NCBI GenBank assembly: GCA_947581765.1
Contig: CANPVU010000002.1
Span: 123 to 64,122, forward strand
Direction: 5' to 3'
Length of the DNA: 64,000 nucleotides
From: an uncultured Bacilli bacterium
Lineage (GTDB): Bacteria > Bacillota_I > Bacilli_A > RF39 > UBA660
Part shown: positions 1-9,018 of the stretch, in pieces
Position numbering within the stretch: the stretch's first letter is position 1
Layout: each line of letters opens with the position of its first letter
The notes under the pieces: generated by a model
Told to the model about the DNA's origin: nothing
The model's database searches: none
The model's input: the letters and a program-made list of their open reading frames with translations, nothing else
Program-made: the position numbers and the translations under genes

Positions 1-77
1 ATTTTACTTAGTTTTTGTTAGTATTAGGTTAACAAGTTATAAAACTAGAACCAACTTACTAATTTTTCAATTTTAAA

Positions 78-141
78 TTTTTCCTTATTTTATCTTACTT
101 TCCACAACAGTTTTTGTATTTCTTTCCACTTCCGCAAGAAC
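78..141. repeat. Direct repeat, left copy: degenerate duplicate of the secA 3' end including its stop codon (att-like site)
   Basis: 78-109 is identical to 3327-3358 (32 nt). Similarity with scattered mismatches continues to 141/3390. The minus strand reads SSCGSGKKYKNCCGK-stop, preceded by an in-frame stop at 143-145. Confidence 0.8.
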
Positions 142-161
142 TTTATTTTCCTATATTATCA

Positions 162-263
162 GTATTATTTGTACTTATAGTATTACTTGTATTTATTGTA
201 TTTTGGTATTAGGTATCATCTGTATTATGTGTATTTTCTGTATTATCTGTACTATAAGTATTT
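162..263. repeat. Degenerate tandem array with 9-bp period, about 12 units, core GTAYTW
   Basis: GTATTA/GTACTT/GTATTT/GTATCA cores start at 162, 171, 180, 189, 198, 206, 213, 222, 231, 240, 249 and 258. It lies just inside the left islet boundary. Confidence 0.7.
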
Positions 264-359
264 TCTAACGTGGACTTTTTGTGGACATTGACCACATTCG
301 TTCACTAATATGAGTATAACACATTTTTTATATTTTATAAAATGTGAAACTTTAAATAT

Positions 360-1082
360 TTAATAAAGTTCTTCAATAAATTGATATAGTGTATTGTATA
401 TATCTTCAAATGAAATAAATTTTAAATTAAATATAAATGATAAATCAGTTGTTTCAGTATGAATATTTAAAATTTGAGGATATTTTTTTTGAAGTTCATC
501 AAAACTTGTACCTTTTCCATGCTTATAAACATTTATAATATTTCTATACAAATCTATTTTTTCTTTAATACATTTATCTATATGTTTCCCTTCTTTTTCA
601 AGAATATCTATACATGAAAAAAATGTGCTTAAATTTTTATTTTTATATTTAGAAAATAAAAATACAGACAATTCTTTTTCAATATATAAATATATTTGCA
701 TAATAAAACTCATGATTAAATTGTATTTAATAGTTTTATATATATACAATTTTTCCCAACTTTCATATAAAAGATCTTCAACCTTTTTATCATTATTTTG
801 AATATCTTTCAAATCTATTTCTTCAATAGCACTATCCCATGCTAATAAACCATTATCAATTAACAATGAAATTTGTTTTAATGTTGGATCAAAAAATTGC
901 TTAATTACTGCATTTATATACTTTTTTTCTGATAAACTTATATTTTTTTTAGCCTTTATAGTATATGACTTTTTTAATATTGCCTTTTCATTATAATTTT
1001 TAATTATAAATTCATATTCCTTTTTTATAGTACTTAACATCTTTTTTGATTTCTTTATAAAAATATTATAATTAATTTCCAC
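360..1082 (-). CDS. Hypothetical protein, islet cargo; no family recognised
   Basis: 240-aa ORF predicted to be helical. Near the C-terminus it reads LYRNIINVYKHGKG, only loosely like an R-x(n)-H HEPN motif. Confidence 0.6.
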   Translation of the reverse strand: MEINYNIFIKKSKKMLSTIKKEYEFIIKNYNEKAILKKSYTIKAKKNISLSEKKYINAVIKQFFDPTLKQISLLIDNGLLAWDSAIEEIDLKDIQNNDKKVEDLLYESWEKLYIYKTIKYNLIMSFIMQIYLYIEKELSVFLFSKYKNKNLSTFFSCIDILEKEGKHIDKCIKEKIDLYRNIINVYKHGKGTSFDELQKKYPQILNIHTETTDLSFIFNLKFISFEDIYNTLYQFIEELY

Positions 1083-1123
1083 TACTGCTTACCTCCATTT
1101 TTAGTTATATTATACCATTTATA

Positions 1124-2346
1124 CTATTTTAGTTTAATAGTACTCTCTAATTTTTTAATTACATTTTCCTTATCTTTATTTACACTTGAAATATAATATT
1201 TTTCTGTTGTTTCAATTCTTTTATGTCCTAATATTTCAGCAATGTCTTTTATTTCACAACCACTCCTTAAACTAATAGTAGCAAAACTCCCTCTTAAATC
1301 GTAAAATCTACAATTAATTCCTAATTCGTGATGAATTATTTTAAAAGGATATCTTATAATATCAGTTCCTGAATATGTTCCATCTTTTCGAGTAAATACC
1401 AGTTGAATTTTATTATCTTTTGAATTTTTTTCTATAATTTTATATTCTACTAACTTACCATATTTATTTTTTATTTCTCCCAATACATATTGCTTATATT
1501 TTTTACTATATTCTTTTTTATAAGTATTTTGCAATTTTTTATAATCAAATAATATTGAATATAAAGTATCACATATATAAACATCTCTTTGGCTTCCTTT
1601 TGTTTTAGTTGTTCCTAAATACCATCTGCCATTTTCTTCTTTATCTTTTGCATATACGGTTTTATTTATTTTAATAATTCTATTATCTAAATCTATATCG
1701 TTCCAAGTTAATGCAAATACTTCTCCTGTTCTCATTCCAGTATAACAAGCCGTAAGAAATGCTGTTATAAATACTTTATTATTTTTAAATCTATTTAAAA
1801 TTAGTTCTATTTCTTTATTAGTATAAACATGACTTACATTGTTTTTTTTAATTCAAATGATAATACTCTAGGTATTTGTAAATCTGCTGCTGGATTATAT
1901 TTAATAAATCCAAAATAATATGTGGCATCTCTTAAAGAACTTTTTATAACTTTTTGATAATTTCTTAATGACTCTTTTTTACTTGATGTTTGATATAATT
2001 TTAACAATGCTTGATTAAGAATATATGAAGTTAAAGCCGATAATTTATAATTACCGATTTCCTTTTTTATATTACTAAAAGACTCTTTATATCTCTTTGC
2101 AGTTGAATATTTATAGTTTATTTCAAAATATTCTTTCATCCAATAATCTAAATAATCGCTATATAACATATTACATTCACTACTTGTTACTCCATTAATA
2201 AATTCATCATATGCTTTTTGTCCTGCTATATATGCTTCATTTTTAGTTCTAAAACCACTTTTTGTTATTTGTTTCCTTTTTCCATTTACCTTCCCTGCTT
2301 CAAAGCAATATTGATAAACACTACCTCTTTTTCTAATATTGATCAT
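1124..2346 (-). pseudogene. int: Tyrosine recombinase (phage/ICE-type integrase) split by a frameshift in a homopolymer
   Basis: ORF 1834-2346 has an arm-binding-type N-terminus (RKRGSVYQYCFEAGKVNGKRKQITKSGFRTKNEA). ORF 1124-1735 has the catalytic region (MRTGEV, YDLRGSFAT, LGHKRIETTEKYY). The downstream frame stays open up to 1850, and one extra A in the A8 run (T8 on plus, 1842-1849) fuses both frames. Confidence 0.85.
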
Positions 2347-2403
2347 ATTTCATTCTCCTCATTTCTTTTCTATTATATAAAAATAACTAGTATCATAAAA
2401 TAA

Positions 2404-3117
2404 CTAGTTATTTTTATCTTGTATATCTATAAATTCCAATTTTTCTAGTGTTGAAAAATTAACTTTTACTTCTTTATTATATTTATTTATGATTAAAAAA
2501 TAATCCTTTAACAAACTAAATATACTTTTAAAATATATATTATAAAAAGTTTCATCGCTTTTTGTTTGAAAAGGTAATAATTTATTTATTTGTGACAATA
2601 CGTGTATATCACCTGAAAAAAAATTATACATATAACCATATTTATATTTTCTTGCTAGTTTTCCATATGTTTTTTTATCTTTAAATATTTTTAATAATCC
2701 CTGATTACTATAATTAATGTCTTTTATATTTAAATTTGTCGCTCCTAGTTGCTTGTTATATGCCTCAATAGATGCTTCAACAATTATTTTTTCATCAATA
2801 TTTTCTTCTTCTATTTCTTTTATTAAAGAAATTTGTTCAATTATTTGCCTGCATAGCATCGATATATATGATGGATAAATTATATTGCTATTAAATTGTC
2901 TGCAAAATTCACTTGTTATATTCATTGCTAAATGAAATACAATTAAATTATTTTTTCTAATCTTTATACTTTGTTTTTCATAATTCACATCTTTATTTAT
3001 ACTTTTTAAGTAATTTACCATTGAGATTCTATATATAAGTAAACTAATCCAATATATTTTATTTTTAATATCTTTATAATTATCTAAATTAACTTTTGTA
3101 TATATCTTTTCAAACAA
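2404..3117 (-). CDS. Hypothetical protein, islet cargo; no family recognised
   Basis: 237-aa ORF starting at TTG. The frame stays open upstream to about 3195 with no ATG, so the start is uncertain. AAAGGAG lies at about 3201-3207 on the minus strand. Confidence 0.6.
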   Translation of the reverse strand: MFEKIYTKVNLDNYKDIKNKIYWISLLIYRISMVNYLKSINKDVNYEKQSIKIRKNNLIVFHLAMNITSEFCRQFNSNIIYPSYISMLCRQIIEQISLIKEIEEENIDEKIIVEASIEAYNKQLGATNLNIKDINYSNQGLLKIFKDKKTYGKLARKYKYGYMYNFFSGDIHVLSQINKLLPFQTKSDETFYNIYFKSIFSLLKDYFLIINKYNKEVKVNFSTLEKLEFIDIQDKNN

Positions 3118-3326
3118 ATTATTTTCAAAAATCTCTTTATGATATTTTTTGTCAATATCAATACCACTTATAATATTATCTAACTCTTTTATTGATGTTC
3201 ACTCCTTTAACAAAAAGGATGTCAACAAATTTATTTTTGTTAACACCCTTTATTTTAAATGGATTTTGTCCACATTTTATTTAATTGGTTGACAAACAAC
3301 AAATTTGTCACTTTTTTAATATTGAT

Positions 3327-3390
3327 TTTTTCCTTATTTTATCTTACTTTCCACAACAATTTTTGTATTTTTTTCCCGAACCACAAGGAC
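3327..3390. repeat. Direct repeat, right copy: the functional secA 3' end and stop codon (att-like site)
   Basis: Pairs with 78-141. Covers the secA stop (3344-3346) and the CPCGSGKKYKNCCGK codons. Confidence 0.8.
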
Positions 3391-5833
3391 ATGGATCATT
3401 TCTACCTATTTTATTAACTCTCTTTGGAGATGCTTTCTTCACTTTAGACTCATCTTGATTTGTTGATATATTTTTAGCTACTTCTTTACGTTCAGTATTT
3501 TGTCTTACTTCTGCTTTTAATAAGTATACAGATGTTTGTTGATCAATTTTAGCTAATAATTCATCAAATAACTCATATCCTTCACTTTTATAAGCCCTAA
3601 GTGGATTTTCTTGAGCATAACCTCTTAAATGTATTCCCTCACGTAAGTGAGACATAGTATTAATATGTTCCATCCAATATGTATCAATAACTCTTAATGA
3701 AATAGCTTTTTCAAAATCACTAACTATTTCATCAGGTAATTGTGATAATTTTTGATTGTATTTATCAAGTACACATTCATATATAACATCAGAAGTATTA
3801 TCTATAGAATTAAAATCAAAATCTTCATCATGAAGTTCAATGTTTAATTCATTTTTAAAGAATGCTTTTATTTCTTCTGCATCTTCATCATTAAACTTTC
3901 CATCTAATGTATGTTCAAATACAACATCATCTATGTAATTTTTAATACTTTCAAGTACTGTATCATGAACTGACTCACTATCAAGTATACTATTACGTCT
4001 TTCATATATAATTTCACGTTGTTCATTTATAACATTATCATATTCAAGTAATGTTTTACGTACATCATAGTTATTACCTTCAACTCTTTTTTGAGCAGTT
4101 TCAATTGATTTAGCTAATGCAGAATTACGAATTGCTGCATCACCAGCAAATCCAGCACGAGCTAACAATCCTTTAGCGCGATCTGCACCAAATCTAACCA
4201 TAAGATCATCTTCAAATGATACACAAAATTGTGAAAATCCTGGATCTCCCTGACGACCAGAACGACCTCTTAATTGGTTATCTATACGTCTTGATTCATG
4301 CCTTTCTGTACCAATTACACATAAACCACCTAATTCTTTTACACCTTCACCTAATTTAATGTCTGTTCCACGACCAGCCATATTAGTAGCAATTGTAACT
4401 GCACCTTTTTCACCGGCATGTGCTATTATTTCTGCTTCTCTTGCATGATTTTTAGCATTTAATACTTCATGTGGTATTTTAGCTTTTTTAAGCATATCAC
4501 TTATTAATTCACTTGTTTCAACAGCTATTGTACCTACAAGTACTGGTTGTCCTTCTTTATGTCTGTCTTTAATTTCATTAACTATAGCCTTATATTTTCC
4601 TTCTTTAGTTGCGAATATTAAATCTTTATAATCATTTCTTATAACAGGTTTATTTGTTGGAATACATATAACATACATATTATATATATCCCTTAATTCT
4701 TCTTCCTCAGTTTTTGCAGTACCTGTCATACCAGATAATTTCTTATACATACGAAACAAATTTTGAAATGTAATAGTAGCTAAAGTTTTAGTTTCTTCAT
4801 TAATAGTTACTCCCTCTTTAGCTTCTATTGCTTGGTGTAATCCATCAGAATATGAACGTCCTTCCATTAAACGTCCTGTAAATGAGTCTACTATTACTAT
4901 TTTATCATCTTTAACAACATAATCTACATCATTATGCATAGCATAATTAGCTTTTAATGCTTGATTAATAAAATGTACTAAATCTGTATTTTCTATATCA
5001 TATAAGTTCTTAACATTAAATGTTTTTTCTGCTTGTTCTATTCCTTTTTGATCTAAAACTGTAGCTTTAGTTTGTTCGTCATATATATATCCATCATCAA
5101 GTTTCAATGATTTTACAAATTTATCTGTTTGAATATATAAATCAGCAGATTTCATATGTCCTCCAGATATAATAAGTGGAGTTCTTGCTTCATCTATTAA
5201 TATTGAATCAACTTCATCAATTATAGCAAAATTTAATTTTCTAGCTACTCTATTTGCTGAATTTACAACCATATTATCTCTAAGGTAATCAAAACCAATT
5301 TCATTGTTTGTAGAATAAGTAATATCACAATTATATGCTGCCTGTTTTTCAGAAGTTGAAAGTTCACGTAAATTAACTCCTACTGTTACGCCTAATAATT
5401 CATAAACAGGTCCCATCCATTCTGCATTACGTGTTGACAAATATTCATTTGTAGTAATTACATGAACACCTTCTCCAGATAAAGAATTCAAATATGCTGG
5501 TAAAACTGTAGTTAATGTTTTTCCTTCACCTGTTTTCATTTCTGCTATATTACCATAATGTATTGCAAATCCACCTACTACTTGTACAAAATATGGCTTT
5601 TCTCCTAAAACTCTATATGCTGCTTCTCTAGCAGTAGCAAAAGCTTCTATTTTTATATCTTCTAATGTTTCTCCATCTTCCAATCTTTGTTTAAATTCAT
5701 CAGTTTTAGCTCTTAATTCTGCATCAGATAACTTAGAGTATTCATCTTCAAGTGCTAAAACTTGATTTGCTAATGATTCAAATTTTTTTAATTCTTTTGC
5801 TTCATGACTAAATAATCTCTTAAATATATTCAT
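3344..5833 (-). CDS. secA: Preprotein translocase ATPase SecA
   Basis: Contains MKTGEGKT, DEVDSILIDEARTPLIISG and the C-terminal zinc motif CPCGSGKKYKNCCGK. ATG at 5833 was chosen because AAAGGAGAG lies upstream; the ORF-track start is 5899. Confidence 0.97.
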   Translation of the reverse strand: MNIFKRLFSHEAKELKKFESLANQVLALEDEYSKLSDAELRAKTDEFKQRLEDGETLEDIKIEAFATAREAAYRVLGEKPYFVQVVGGFAIHYGNIAEMKTGEGKTLTTVLPAYLNSLSGEGVHVITTNEYLSTRNAEWMGPVYELLGVTVGVNLRELSTSEKQAAYNCDITYSTNNEIGFDYLRDNMVVNSANRVARKLNFAIIDEVDSILIDEARTPLIISGGHMKSADLYIQTDKFVKSLKLDDGYIYDEQTKATVLDQKGIEQAEKTFNVKNLYDIENTDLVHFINQALKANYAMHNDVDYVVKDDKIVIVDSFTGRLMEGRSYSDGLHQAIEAKEGVTINEETKTLATITFQNLFRMYKKLSGMTGTAKTEEEELRDIYNMYVICIPTNKPVIRNDYKDLIFATKEGKYKAIVNEIKDRHKEGQPVLVGTIAVETSELISDMLKKAKIPHEVLNAKNHAREAEIIAHAGEKGAVTIATNMAGRGTDIKLGEGVKELGGLCVIGTERHESRRIDNQLRGRSGRQGDPGFSQFCVSFEDDLMVRFGADRAKGLLARAGFAGDAAIRNSALAKSIETAQKRVEGNNYDVRKTLLEYDNVINEQREIIYERRNSILDSESVHDTVLESIKNYIDDVVFEHTLDGKFNDEDAEEIKAFFKNELNIELHDEDFDFNSIDNTSDVIYECVLDKYNQKLSQLPDEIVSDFEKAISLRVIDTYWMEHINTMSHLREGIHLRGYAQENPLRAYKSEGYELFDELLAKIDQQTSVYLLKAEVRQNTERKEVAKNISTNQDESKVKKASPKRVNKIGRNDPCPCGSGKKYKNCCGK

Positions 5834-5907
5834 TTGATACTCTCCTTTTGCATATAAATATATTATATCAATTATTCGTTTAAAATCATAGTAATTCAAA
5901 GAAATTT

Positions 5908-6864: not shown

Positions 6865-6978
6865 ATTATTCTTTTTAATTTAATTATTATGTTTTGTGCA
6901 CAAAATTGATGATTACAAACATATAATATTTGTTTTAAGTTAATTTAAATATATAATGGACTCATGGAGGTAAATTGT

Positions 6979-7596
6979 ATGAGAAAAAGAGTAGTAACAC
7001 TAATAACAAACTATATAAAAAAATATAAGGATTTAGATAAAGATAGCGAAGAAGTAATTATATATGGTTTAGAATCATTATATATTTTGATAACAAAGGT
7101 AGGTATGATTTTCATTTTAGCAGCAATACTAGGAATATTTAAAGAAACTTTTATATTTCTCTTATGCTTTAATGGAATTCGAGCATTTGCTTTTGGTTTA
7201 CACGCTACAAAAAGTTACATTTGCTTTATAGTTTCAACGATTGTATGTTTAGCGTTACCCTATTTAGCATCCTCTATCACAATTTTACAAATGTATAAAA
7301 TCATTATTGGAGTTATATGTACTTGTTTAATCTTTAAAAATAGTCCAGCTGATACTCATAAAAGACCAATTGTAAATCCTGTTAAAAGAAAAAAATTTAA
7401 AATAATTTCAACTTTAATTTCTATTTTTTATGTTATTTTATCACTATTTATAAATTCTTTTATAAGTAACTGCTTACTATTTAGTTTAATAGTAGAATCA
7501 ATTATAACTGCTCCTTTTACATATAAATTATTTAAGCTTCCATATAATAATTATATAAAATATTTAGAAGAGGAGGATGAAAATGTTTTTTGCTAA
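6979..7596 (+). CDS. agrB: AgrB-family membrane peptidase that processes the autoinducing peptide
   Basis: Polytopic membrane protein with FAFGLHATKSYICF, matching the conserved His/Cys pair of AgrB. GGAGGT lies 7 nt upstream of the ATG at 6979. Confidence 0.85.
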   Translation: MRKRVVTLITNYIKKYKDLDKDSEEVIIYGLESLYILITKVGMIFILAAILGIFKETFIFLLCFNGIRAFAFGLHATKSYICFIVSTIVCLALPYLASSITILQMYKIIIGVICTCLIFKNSPADTHKRPIVNPVKRKKFKIISTLISIFYVILSLFINSFISNCLLFSLIVESIITAPFTYKLFKLPYNNYIKYLEEEDENVFC

Positions 7597-7699
7597 TTTA
7601 TTAAGTGGATTTGCTACTTTATTTGCCAGTGAATGTTCTAATAAATGTTTAGTTCTTATCATTGACGAACCAAAATGTCCAAAAAGTTTAATTAAATAA
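7583..7699 (+). CDS. agrD: AgrD-like autoinducing peptide precursor; not in the ORF track
   Basis: Translates to MFFANLLSGFATLFASECSNKCLVLIIDEPKCPKSLIK. It has a hydrophobic N-terminus, Cys plus 4 residues, then an acidic/Pro tail (DEP..PKSL). AGGAGG at 7571-7576 lies 6 nt upstream, overlapping the end of agrB. An alternative ATG is at 7577. Confidence 0.75.
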   Translation: MFFANLLSGFATLFASECSNKCLVLIIDEPKCPKSLIK

Positions 7700-7703
7700 A
7701 TAT

Positions 7704-7726
7704 AACACCCTTGCTGGGTGTTTTTT
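7704..7726. terminator. Bidirectional terminator between the convergent agrBD and kinase genes
   Basis: Stem AACACCC/GGGTGTT with loop TTGCT. T-run on the plus strand and a T-rich tract on the minus strand. Confidence 0.7.
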
Positions 7727-7728
7727 GT

Positions 7729-9018
7729 TTATCTATTTATTTGAAGTACTTGAGTAAATTCATCAGAATTAATTTCATGATGGGTACGTAATTTAGAATT
7801 ATTTTTAACTAATTTTTTTACAAGTGATAATCCATATCCATGATTTCCACCCTTAGTACTAACTCCTGCTTTATATATGTCATCCTTTTTTATTGACGTA
7901 TCAAAAATATTTGTTATTAATATATTAAAAATATTATCTTCGTTATACATTTCAATTATAATATATTTCTCATTTAACTTATCAACTTCTTCTATTGCAT
8001 TATCCAAAAATATACCAATTATTTTACAAATATCCAACATAGTTTTCTCACCATAATCCAATAAATCTACTAATCTTACTGAACTAGATAATTCTAAATC
8101 ATAATCAATATTTTTATTTTTCATAAGTAACAATTTTGAATATATTAAACCTCTTAATCCACCACTTGGAATCATACTAGTTTCATGCATAATATTTTTA
8201 TCATCCTTTAGTTTATTATCCAATATAGTATCAATAAATTTAATTATTTTCTTACTAGTTGTCATATTTCTAATAGTCATAAGTTGATTTTTATTTTCAT
8301 GATTATCTATTCTATGATTAGTAAGTACATTTTCTAATTCTCTTAAGCTTACTAAACTACTATTATATTTATCAGATACTTTATAATAATCATTTTTAGT
8401 CTTAAAGAATAAACAAATAAATACAAATGAAATTATAGATATAATTAATGAAAAAATTGTTAAAAGTGATGGATTTAACAATGAAAAAGTATTTAAAGTT
8501 AAAATTCCATATATAAATAAAACAATTACAGATAAAAAAATTATAAATGTTTGATTCAATCTTTCTGTAGCATTGTCAAAGAAGTAATATAATTTTTTTA
8601 CTATTGGAATTTTAGATATTACTAATGAACAAAATGAAATTGATGTATTAGCAATAAAACTACCAAAATAATTATTGATAAATTTATCAGTATTATTTTT
8701 TAATAATATCATTAATATTAGCGCAAAAACAGATTCACTAACCATATATATTATTTGAGTAATAATTGGTCCAGTTAACGAGTTCTTTAAATTAACATCA
8801 AATAAAATTTTATATATTAAAATCAATATAATAGTTGTATTTATCGCTTTCAATGTAGCATGAATATTAAAATAGTTAATTAAAATTACTATACTAGCTC
8901 CCAAAATTATGAAAAGAGTTCTTAATTTAAACCATTTTATCTTTTCTGTTGACCAACTATTCCAAATTGTAAAAATTATTATTACCATAATAAAAGATGA
9001 AATTATTGTTCCAATCAT
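7729..9018 (-). CDS. agrC: AgrC-like sensor histidine kinase (multi-TM sensor plus GHKL ATPase)
   Basis: The N-terminal ~200 aa are hydrophobic with multiple TM segments. The C-terminus reads FLDNAIEE and STKGGNHGYGLSLVKKLV. It overlaps the upstream LytTR regulator gene by 4 nt. Confidence 0.8.
   Translation of the reverse strand: MIGTIISSFIMVIIIFTIWNSWSTEKIKWFKLRTLFIILGASIVILINYFNIHATLKAINTTIILILIYKILFDVNLKNSLTGPIITQIIYMVSESVFALILMILLKNNTDKFINNYFGSFIANTSISFCSLVISKIPIVKKLYYFFDNATERLNQTFIIFLSVIVLFIYGILTLNTFSLLNPSLLTIFSLIISIISFVFICLFFKTKNDYYKVSDKYNSSLVSLRELENVLTNHRIDNHENKNQLMTIRNMTTSKKIIKFIDTILDNKLKDDKNIMHETSMIPSGGLRGLIYSKLLLMKNKNIDYDLELSSSVRLVDLLDYGEKTMLDICKIIGIFLDNAIEEVDKLNEKYIIIEMYNEDNIFNILITNIFDTSIKKDDIYKAGVSTKGGNHGYGLSLVKKLVKNNSKLRTHHEINSDEFTQVLQINR

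Follow-up and report, generated by a model that had tools for sequence, protein, structure and literature searches.

What are the two small genes that flank an integrase behind secA in an uncultured Bacilli bacterium, and what might they do? These genes, here called A and B, lie near the left end of a 64,000-nt stretch of contig CANPVU010000002.1 (positions 123 to 64,122; assembly GCA_947581765.1), the whole of which is referred to as the window. This end of the window has a GC content of 19–24%, all of its real genes are on the minus strand, and an insert of 3,249 bp downstream of secA comprises three genes in the order B, integrase, A. A first-pass annotation of the sequence had described a three-gene, integrase-centered islet at a conserved locus and guessed that A and B were defense cargo; the islet itself is borne out by a 93-nt att-like direct repeat that encloses B, integrase, and A.

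We consider it most likely, with roughly even confidence, that A and B are anti-phage or anti-mobile-element defense proteins of an abortive-infection or effector type. This interpretation draws on the cargo of related islets, the genes that accompany A and B elsewhere, and the repeated adjacency of the two families outside such islets.

Two Cassette Slots in a Family of secA Islets

One genome per species was scanned for the integrase. The same integrase was identified in 75 species at 55–84% identity, nearly all of them uncultured gut Bacilli or "Tenericutes"-type metagenome-assembled genomes (MAGs), with host labels that include Clostridium sp. CAG:417, Mycoplasma sp. CAG:877, and Candidatus Onthousia. 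Wherever the flank was available, the integrase lay directly downstream of secA. The interval from secA to the integrase was defined as slot 1 and the region after the integrase as slot 2, and the open reading frames (ORFs) in both were clustered. More than 40 cargo families were found, freely combined between the two slots; the leader and the distal arm of the islets are conserved, and the gene content between them has been exchanged wholesale.

This turnover bears on the notion that A and B serve the element itself, as an excisionase or directionality factor, a regulator, or a replication protein. The islet contains no recognizable Xis or regulator, and A and B are its only other genes. Most related islets, however, combine the same integrase and arms with unrelated genes in place of A and B, and both families are found away from any such integrase. 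A core function is contradicted by this distribution, and we regard it as hardly credible.

Recognizable defense genes are frequent in the slots of other islets. They include AbiLi (4.8e-47) with AbiLii, two Ser/Thr kinase families matching PD-T4-6, Stk2, and mad6 (down to 1.6e-33), PDC-M59A (1.8e-102) and PDC-M59B (8.4e-38), which on visual inspection resemble a RhuM-like protein and a Doc/Fic-like protein, RhuM (PDC-S05; 2.6e-157), NucC-like PD-DExK nucleases (1.2e-34), DUF5677 (36.7 bits), DUF4365, NERD/DUF4143, and a GHKL ATPase. We counted one or more defense-type genes in 26 of 49 related islets. Many further cassettes, more than 20 families, have no recognized function. A paralogue of the TrpRS/TyrRS family (330 aa; PF00579, 5e-61) occupies slot 1 of five loci (e.g., L009:5457–6449, L014, L021, and L037) and could be a resistance or decoy synthetase.

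Cargo Families A and B

Both families are conserved, have invariant residues, and yield confident models, and A and B are therefore genuine genes rather than chance AT-rich ORFs. Neither is a membrane protein, as the maximum Kyte–Doolittle values over 19 residues (1.14 for A and 0.92 for B) leave no transmembrane segment.

The A family comprises 63 clusters with invariant residues E22, Q129, E135, and E137 and the invariant motif Y179-R-x3-N-x2-K-H-G-x-G-x-S193. The stretch quoted in the first-pass annotation, LYRNIINVYKHGKG, is present as residues 178–191. An AlphaFold2 model (43-sequence alignment) is all-helical with a predicted local distance difference test (pLDDT) score of 91.5 and a predicted template-modeling (TM) score (pTM) of 0.87, and it places R180-x7-H188 at the C-terminal end of the helix 170–188, followed by the G-x-G-x-S loop. 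A distant superfamily of proteins of about 250 aa was observed in Proteobacteria (including Bradyrhizobium), marine metagenomes, and IMG/VR viral contigs (L115–L122, L128–L136, P0105, and P0106). Its members have the length of A, keep R-x3-N-x2-K-H-G-x-G-x-S invariant, and are covered by no Pfam model. The R-x7-H spacing is invariant throughout the superfamily, in keeping with the earlier remark that it falls outside Rx4-6H.

Residues 155–206 of A, the region of the invariant motif, match positions 130–182 of the 246-position profile PHROG 19541 (E = 2.4e-6). This is a phage family of unassigned function, and a match over the motif region alone supplies a name and no mechanism. The best fold match of A in BFVD (Foldseek) was an uncharacterized Myoviridae protein at a TM score of about 0.43, tblastn of A against 50,697 phage genomes gave no match, and the IMG/VR scan with A recovered motif-level distant relatives only, on viral contigs. 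In four loci (L097, L098, L100, and L113), copies of A are truncated at residue 50–56, depending on the locus, directly behind a 294-aa ORF (cluster C2), which possibly reflects disruption of A by an insertion sequence.

The N-terminus of B was placed at position 3192 rather than 3117, since about 40 homologues of about 260 aa begin with MKELDN there. The codon at 3192 is ATA, 9 nt past an AAAGGAG ribosome-binding site, and an in-frame TGA (3199–3201) stands two codons upstream; TTG at 3117 is the first canonical start, and its use would delete 25 residues that belong to the predicted fold. With the start at 3192, B has 262 codons. The ATA start is common to the window and to two other assemblies (loci L032 and L137), the family-conserved codon being ATG, and about 7 of the roughly 10 substitutions among these three near-identical copies are non-synonymous; the B family as a whole is strongly conserved. 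In the protein of L137 (P0027), the TGA that precedes B is translated as Trp, which means that genetic code 4 was used for the call. In the window, secA and the other genes are intact under code 11.

The B family contains 43–49 clusters with invariant residues S111, R115, E119, N146, N163, G165, K168, Y189, S193, and H197. The two stretches quoted earlier, SMLCRQIIEQISL and FFSGDIHVLSQ, correspond to residues 110–122 and 191–201 in the 262-aa numbering. Its AlphaFold2 model (39-sequence alignment) is also all-helical (pLDDT 88.0, pTM 0.86). An exhaustive search of 1.84 billion representative proteins with the B-family profile retrieved 49 proteins, every one of the same family; tblastn of B against the 50,697 phage genomes gave no match, and the IMG/VR scan with B found no relatives. 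Two fusion proteins, P0065 and P0068, begin with the N-terminal half of B (about 137 aa), continue with C-terminal integrase sequence, and look like products of deletion between KYGKL-like stretches. P0068 occurs on 115 contigs of up to 361 kb and is therefore a widespread fixed remnant.

Relation to Known Protein Families

Consistent with the first-pass annotation, which could place neither protein in a family, searches of Pfam, NCBIfam, and PADLOC with the single sequences assigned no family to A or B. In PADLOC-DB v2.0.0, A had no match and B matched only Cas5c at E = 0.29, which is noise. Pfam searches with all 82 members of the two family alignments gave scattered noise, with no HEPN, Abi, or DUF5677 model at E ≤ 1. 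Profile searches of PDB sequences with A and with B found nothing, and Foldseek comparison of the two models with the PDB matched no solved fold (best E = 0.3, TM ≤ 0.28). By hhalign, a paralogous relation between A and B was rejected (probability 0.1%), as was kinship of either to any of 35 other cassette families.

The same annotation had seen a loose resemblance to HEPN, DUF5677, and AbiV proteins. The hallmark of HEPN proteins is Rx4-6H at the start of the last helix in a four-helix bundle. HEPN RNases and AbiV/DUF5677 proteins resemble A and B in being helical, in their conserved Arg, His, and Glu, and in coming from defense islands, and genuine DUF5677 (PF18928) members fill slot 2 of sister islets. 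A distant relative of A, P0105, also shows a very weak match to a Csm6 HEPN model (E = 0.095), Csx1 appears very weakly at Foldseek rank 24 (E = 7.2), and other slot cassettes show R-x4-H-G by eye or match DUF5677. Profile and fold comparisons nevertheless do not sustain the resemblance. No model matched A, B, or their 82 family members at the threshold given above, and when A and B were compared by hhalign with the cassettes that are DUF5677-like or contain R-x4-H, the probabilities were at most 3%, with 1.2% for B against the DUF5677 cassette of L014. The latter protein, from slot 2, matches PF18928 at 36.7 bits (cut-off 27.1), and the same search could therefore have found that family in A or B. 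In A, the invariant R-x7-H ends its helix and runs on as K-H-G-x-G-x-S, and in the model of B, R115 and H197 are on separate helices. Neither protein thus shows the motif spacing and position, the profile, or the fold of HEPN proteins, nor a match to the AbiV/DUF5677 family model, and it seems very unlikely that A and/or B are divergent RNase abortive-infection proteins of the HEPN or AbiV/DUF5677 type.

Genomic Company and a Probable A–B Partnership

Outside the islets, homologues of A and B are found among defense-type genes. Solo B homologues adjoin a SEFIR/TIR protein with Phd, a NERD protein, and a 521-aa Ser/Thr kinase, and further B homologues lie beside Fic and a Schlafen-like ATPase. 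Some solo A homologues are in a conjugative element after an AAA_21 ATPase, and others stand directly behind secA without an integrase. Members of the distant A superfamily neighbor an MmeI-type restriction-modification gene with a DEAD/ResIII helicase and T5orf172, and in other cases DUF3644-REase, RhuM, or a P22-type antirepressor. Such neighbors recur in independent contexts, as judged by inspection of the gene company at individual loci.

Within islets, A and B assort independently. B was found with five slot-2 partners (methyltransferase, DUF1835/DUF3658, DUF5677-like, DUF4365, and A), and A with six slot-1 partners (two kinase families, a NucC-like nuclease, two unknown families, and B). 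Outside islets, diverged members of the two families abut in three lineages, as tight, translationally coupled two-gene operons. A B homologue is followed after 1 nt by an A homologue in L090 and L124/L125 (49–51% and 41–44% identity to B and A of the window), and in L108/L123 an A homologue is followed after 2 nt by a B homologue (58% to B of the window). Profile hidden Markov models identified A-like proteins in 48 and B-like proteins in 19 of the fetched loci, and both in five loci of three lineages, always abutting; the pairwise identities of A and B covary across loci. The first-pass annotation had held that a lack of co-occurrence elsewhere would tell against its guess, and these pairs show that diverged homologues of the two genes do co-occur.

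As both families are rare and tightly coupled repeatedly in both orders, accident is unlikely. We read A and B as probable optional functional partners, and adjacency might also reflect mere co-residence in defense islands. The A–B operons give a specific and testable hypothesis of cooperation.

Weighing a Defense Function

Several points weigh against a defense function of A and B or against their joint action in this islet. The argument is one of guilt by association, and A and B have no homology to any characterized protein. Other slots hold non-defense cassettes, namely the TrpRS paralogue, GNAT acetyltransferases, a nucleotidase (NT5C)/nucleoside hydrolase with an HD protein, peptidase S51, a methyltransferase, and DUF1835/DUF3658; hence, slot occupancy by itself is not diagnostic of defense, and the slots are an accessory-gene hotspot enriched for defense but not exclusive to it. 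The window is the sole islet with both A and B among about 55, which matches chance expectation from their frequencies. Its B allele, with the ATA start, may be weakly translated or recently silenced, and promoter-like sites in the islet are not more frequent than in shuffled sequence.

The metabolic or resistance-like cassettes in the same slots would also suit a different role for A and B, as accessory cargo that acts as a niche-adaptive enzyme or regulator, or as an addiction pair of toxin–antitoxin type that stabilizes the islet; for the latter, the tight A–B operons would fit. However, the neighborhoods of A and B outside islets are dominated by defense-type genes, the two usually occur apart, which fits an obligate toxin–antitoxin pair poorly, and lengths of 240–260 aa are atypical for antitoxins. 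We consider a non-defense role unlikely. The defense function that we favor instead gains strong circumstantial support from the AbiLi/AbiLii, kinase, PDC-M59A/B, RhuM, NucC-like, and DUF5677 cassettes of the same slots, and this part of the earlier guess is supported by genomic context, unlike the HEPN/AbiV resemblance.

In the working model, A and B are accessory cassettes of a very small integrative element of uncultured low-GC gut Bacilli, for which the 3′ end of secA is the specific insertion site. Its conserved backbone starts and finishes with an att core and comprises, from one to the other, about 150 nt of arm and leader sequence, then the integrase, then the distal arm. Of the two variable slots, the first precedes the integrase and the second follows it, and their cassettes are probably swapped between elements by homologous recombination in the backbone. 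In A, the polar cluster formed by E-x-E and R-x3-N-x2-K-H-G-x-G-x-S is a putative active or ligand-binding site, as is the cluster S-x3-R-x3-E, N, K, and Y-x3-S-x3-H in B. The two proteins can probably act together, for example as sensor and effector.

A broader reading is more tentative and to us only possible: that A and B are new anti-phage families, acting alone or coupled, with folds unlike any solved or annotated one, carried by previously undescribed minimal two-slot secA islands across an order of uncultured gut Bacilli, whose integrase is expressed via conserved recoding or phase variation at an A8 run, so that a tyrosine recombinase would be divided into regulator and enzyme in the manner of an IS. 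The islet family offers a clean natural experiment, in which dozens of cassettes can replace one another in the two slots of the same backbone. Roughly one islet in two has a recognizable defense gene, and A and B belong to the many cassette families that are unrecognized. If the reading is true, the secA islands would be a ready-made discovery platform, with their more than 20 cassette families of unknown function.

The Frame Split of the Integrase

The tyrosine integrase of the islet has arm-binding, core-binding, and catalytic domains, and inspection of its translation by eye shows the catalytic R, (Y)xxR, H, and Y. Its full-length ORF requires a −1 shift at a run of eight A (A8), a split that the first-pass annotation does not mention. 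The upstream product, IntN (1834–2346), carries the Arm-DNA-binding (Arm-DNA-bind_4) and SAM-like domains, and the Phage_integrase part is encoded by the ORF 1124–1735, with the −1 frame open from 1852 to 1124. The two frames share about 18 nt, delimited by a stop codon in each.

The same GAA TTA AAA AAA AC sequence marks the change from IntN to the catalytic frame, with a −1 offset, in about 55 related loci, and the halves retain 66–90% amino-acid identity without other lesions. The preservation of the split in these loci rules out a pseudogene. Run length varies: an A9 run gives a single intact ORF in L022 and L024, an A7 run gives a +1 offset in L029, L035, L049, and L053, and the integrases of L047 and L051 are also in +1, with other run sequences.

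Judging from the conserved run and its length variants, the split is compatible with programmed −1 frameshifting, with transcriptional slippage, and with a phase-variable tract; slippage would tolerate A7, A8, and A9 alike. Recoding would yield free arm-binding IntN in addition to full-length integrase, and a free IntN is suggestive given that the islet has no excisionase gene. No precedent for a frameshifted tyrosine integrase was found in the literature searched, of which coverage was partial. If confirmed, the A8 shift would place a tyrosine recombinase under the control of recoding or phase variation, which would be unusual.

Islet Architecture and Its secA Target

The islet is located in the final codons of secA (Table 1). 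As in a site-specific element, flanking direct repeats duplicate the 3′ end of the target: the 93-nt copies are 81% identical at a spacing of 3,249 and share an exact 31-nt core that spans the last four secA codons, the stop, and 16 nt beyond. No tRNA was found in the whole window, and the att site is therefore not a tRNA. In gene order, the insert consists of a leader of about 150 nt, B, the integrase in two ORFs, A, and a distal arm of about 220 nt.

Table 1. Features of the secA islet (positions in the window).
Feature	Position	Strand	Remarks
secA, integration target	3344–5899	-	851-aa ORF; orthologues beside related islets carry SecA Pfam domains
Proximal direct-repeat copy, attR-like	3298–3390		Exact core 3328–3358
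Backbone leader ("P arm"), secA to slot 1	3199–3343	-	Aligns in 20 loci irrespective of cargo
Cargo gene B, slot 1	2404–3192	-	262 codons; start codon ATA in the window
Inverted repeat, perfect 15 bp, across B stop codon	2377–2417	-	Also in L032
Tyrosine integrase, two frames	1124–2346	-	Pfam PF14657, PF14659, PF00589
A8 run, conserved −1 slip site	1842–1849	-	Inside GAA TTA AAA AAA ACA; surroundings GAATTAAAAAAAACA
Cargo gene A, slot 2	360–1082	-	240 aa; GTG start behind GGAGG ribosome-binding site
Conserved distal backbone ("P′ arm")	142–359	-	83.5% to region 3′ of other slot-2 cargo in L005
Distal direct-repeat copy, attL-like	49–141		Exact core 79–109; displaced 14-codon secA 3′ end SCGSGKKYKNCCGK*

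The leader contains repeated TGT(C/G)(A/G)ACAAA (TGTSRACAAA) motifs, which are probably arm-type integrase sites, and a hairpin at 3290–3310. A second hairpin of 16 bp at 3214–3251, followed by a U-run, is terminator-like (RNA fold −34.5 kcal/mol, z = −4.45), and the inverted repeat across the stop codon of B looks like a terminator that separates B from the integrase. A simple terminator scan of the islet found nothing, and there was no Rfam match within it. The distal arm has TGTCCACAAAA-type motifs near 280–300. Between 150 and 270, it also contains a 9-nt-periodic tract at about 207–266 (minus strand ACAGATAAT ACAGAAAAT ACACATAAT ...), which may serve as a series of sites for protein binding or DNA bending.

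The gene secA, an ORF that by eye resembles a ribosome hibernation factor (HPF), and cspA adjoin an agr-like quorum-sensing locus (6964–9018), with the same layout in L005. It contains an ORF that is AgrB-like by eye (6964–7596; its L005 counterpart is PF04647 AgrB), an AgrD-like 40-aa peptide ORF (7577–7699), and a histidine kinase (7729–9018) on the opposite strand.

Mobility and Decay

Comparison with L032, a rabbit-gut Bacilli MAG, revealed a mosaic. The two secA genes are 49–87% identical in 150-nt windows. At the att core (about 3359), identity jumps from about 0.7 to 0.98, and values of 97–100% extend across the leader, B, and the 5′ half of the integrase before a fall to 0.71–0.84 in its 3′ half, such that the high stretch covers about 2000–3359. 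This indicates a precise site-specific boundary and a very recent inter-host transfer with a breakpoint inside the integrase, a pattern that would be expected of backbone-mediated cassette shuffling.

The transfer also bears on whether the islet of the window is merely a decaying remnant with a frameshifted integrase, a lost B start, and non-functional cargo. The integrase in two frames, the ATA in place of ATG in B with its mostly non-synonymous recent changes, and the decay products seen elsewhere (the B–integrase fusions P0065 and P0068 and the four truncated A copies) would agree with such a fate. Against it, the frame split is the conserved state of the related integrases, A is an intact ORF with a strong ribosome-binding site and all of its invariant residues, the att repeats, arms, and leader are intact, and the half of the islet that bears B moved between species very recently. 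Decay of the whole islet therefore appears rather improbable to us.

Comparison With Known Systems

In IS1 and IS3, −1 frameshifting or transcriptional slippage at A-rich runs fuses the DNA-binding OrfA to the catalytic OrfB. The integrase of the islet resembles this type of recoding in its A AAA AAA C slip site, in the short overlap bounded by stops, and in having a DNA-binding upstream product and a catalytic downstream one. It differs in kind, the enzymes of IS1 and IS3 being DDE transposases, whereas that of the islet is a tyrosine recombinase of an integrative island.

Integrase-borne defense hotspots are well known in cultured Proteobacteria, and the Vibrio phage-defense elements and P2/P4 hotspot cassettes are further examples of integrase-borne hotspots. 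To our knowledge, almost nothing has been reported on phage defense in small-genome uncultured gut Bacilli. The secA islet is similar to these islands, among which are the defense-hotspot integrative elements of E. coli (PMC10121019) and the pipolins (PMC11551731), in being an att-flanked tyrosine-integrase element at a conserved chromosomal site, with a conserved backbone, fast-exchanged cargo rich in known and unknown defense genes, and recent inter-host transfer. Different from them, it is only 3.2 kb long with three genes, it has exactly two slots, one on each side of the integrase, and a conserved leader that feeds slot 1, and its target is the 3′ end of secA and not a tRNA or tmRNA gene. 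It also stands apart in its hosts, uncultured small-genome gut Bacilli, and in an integrase that needs a −1 shift at an A8 run.

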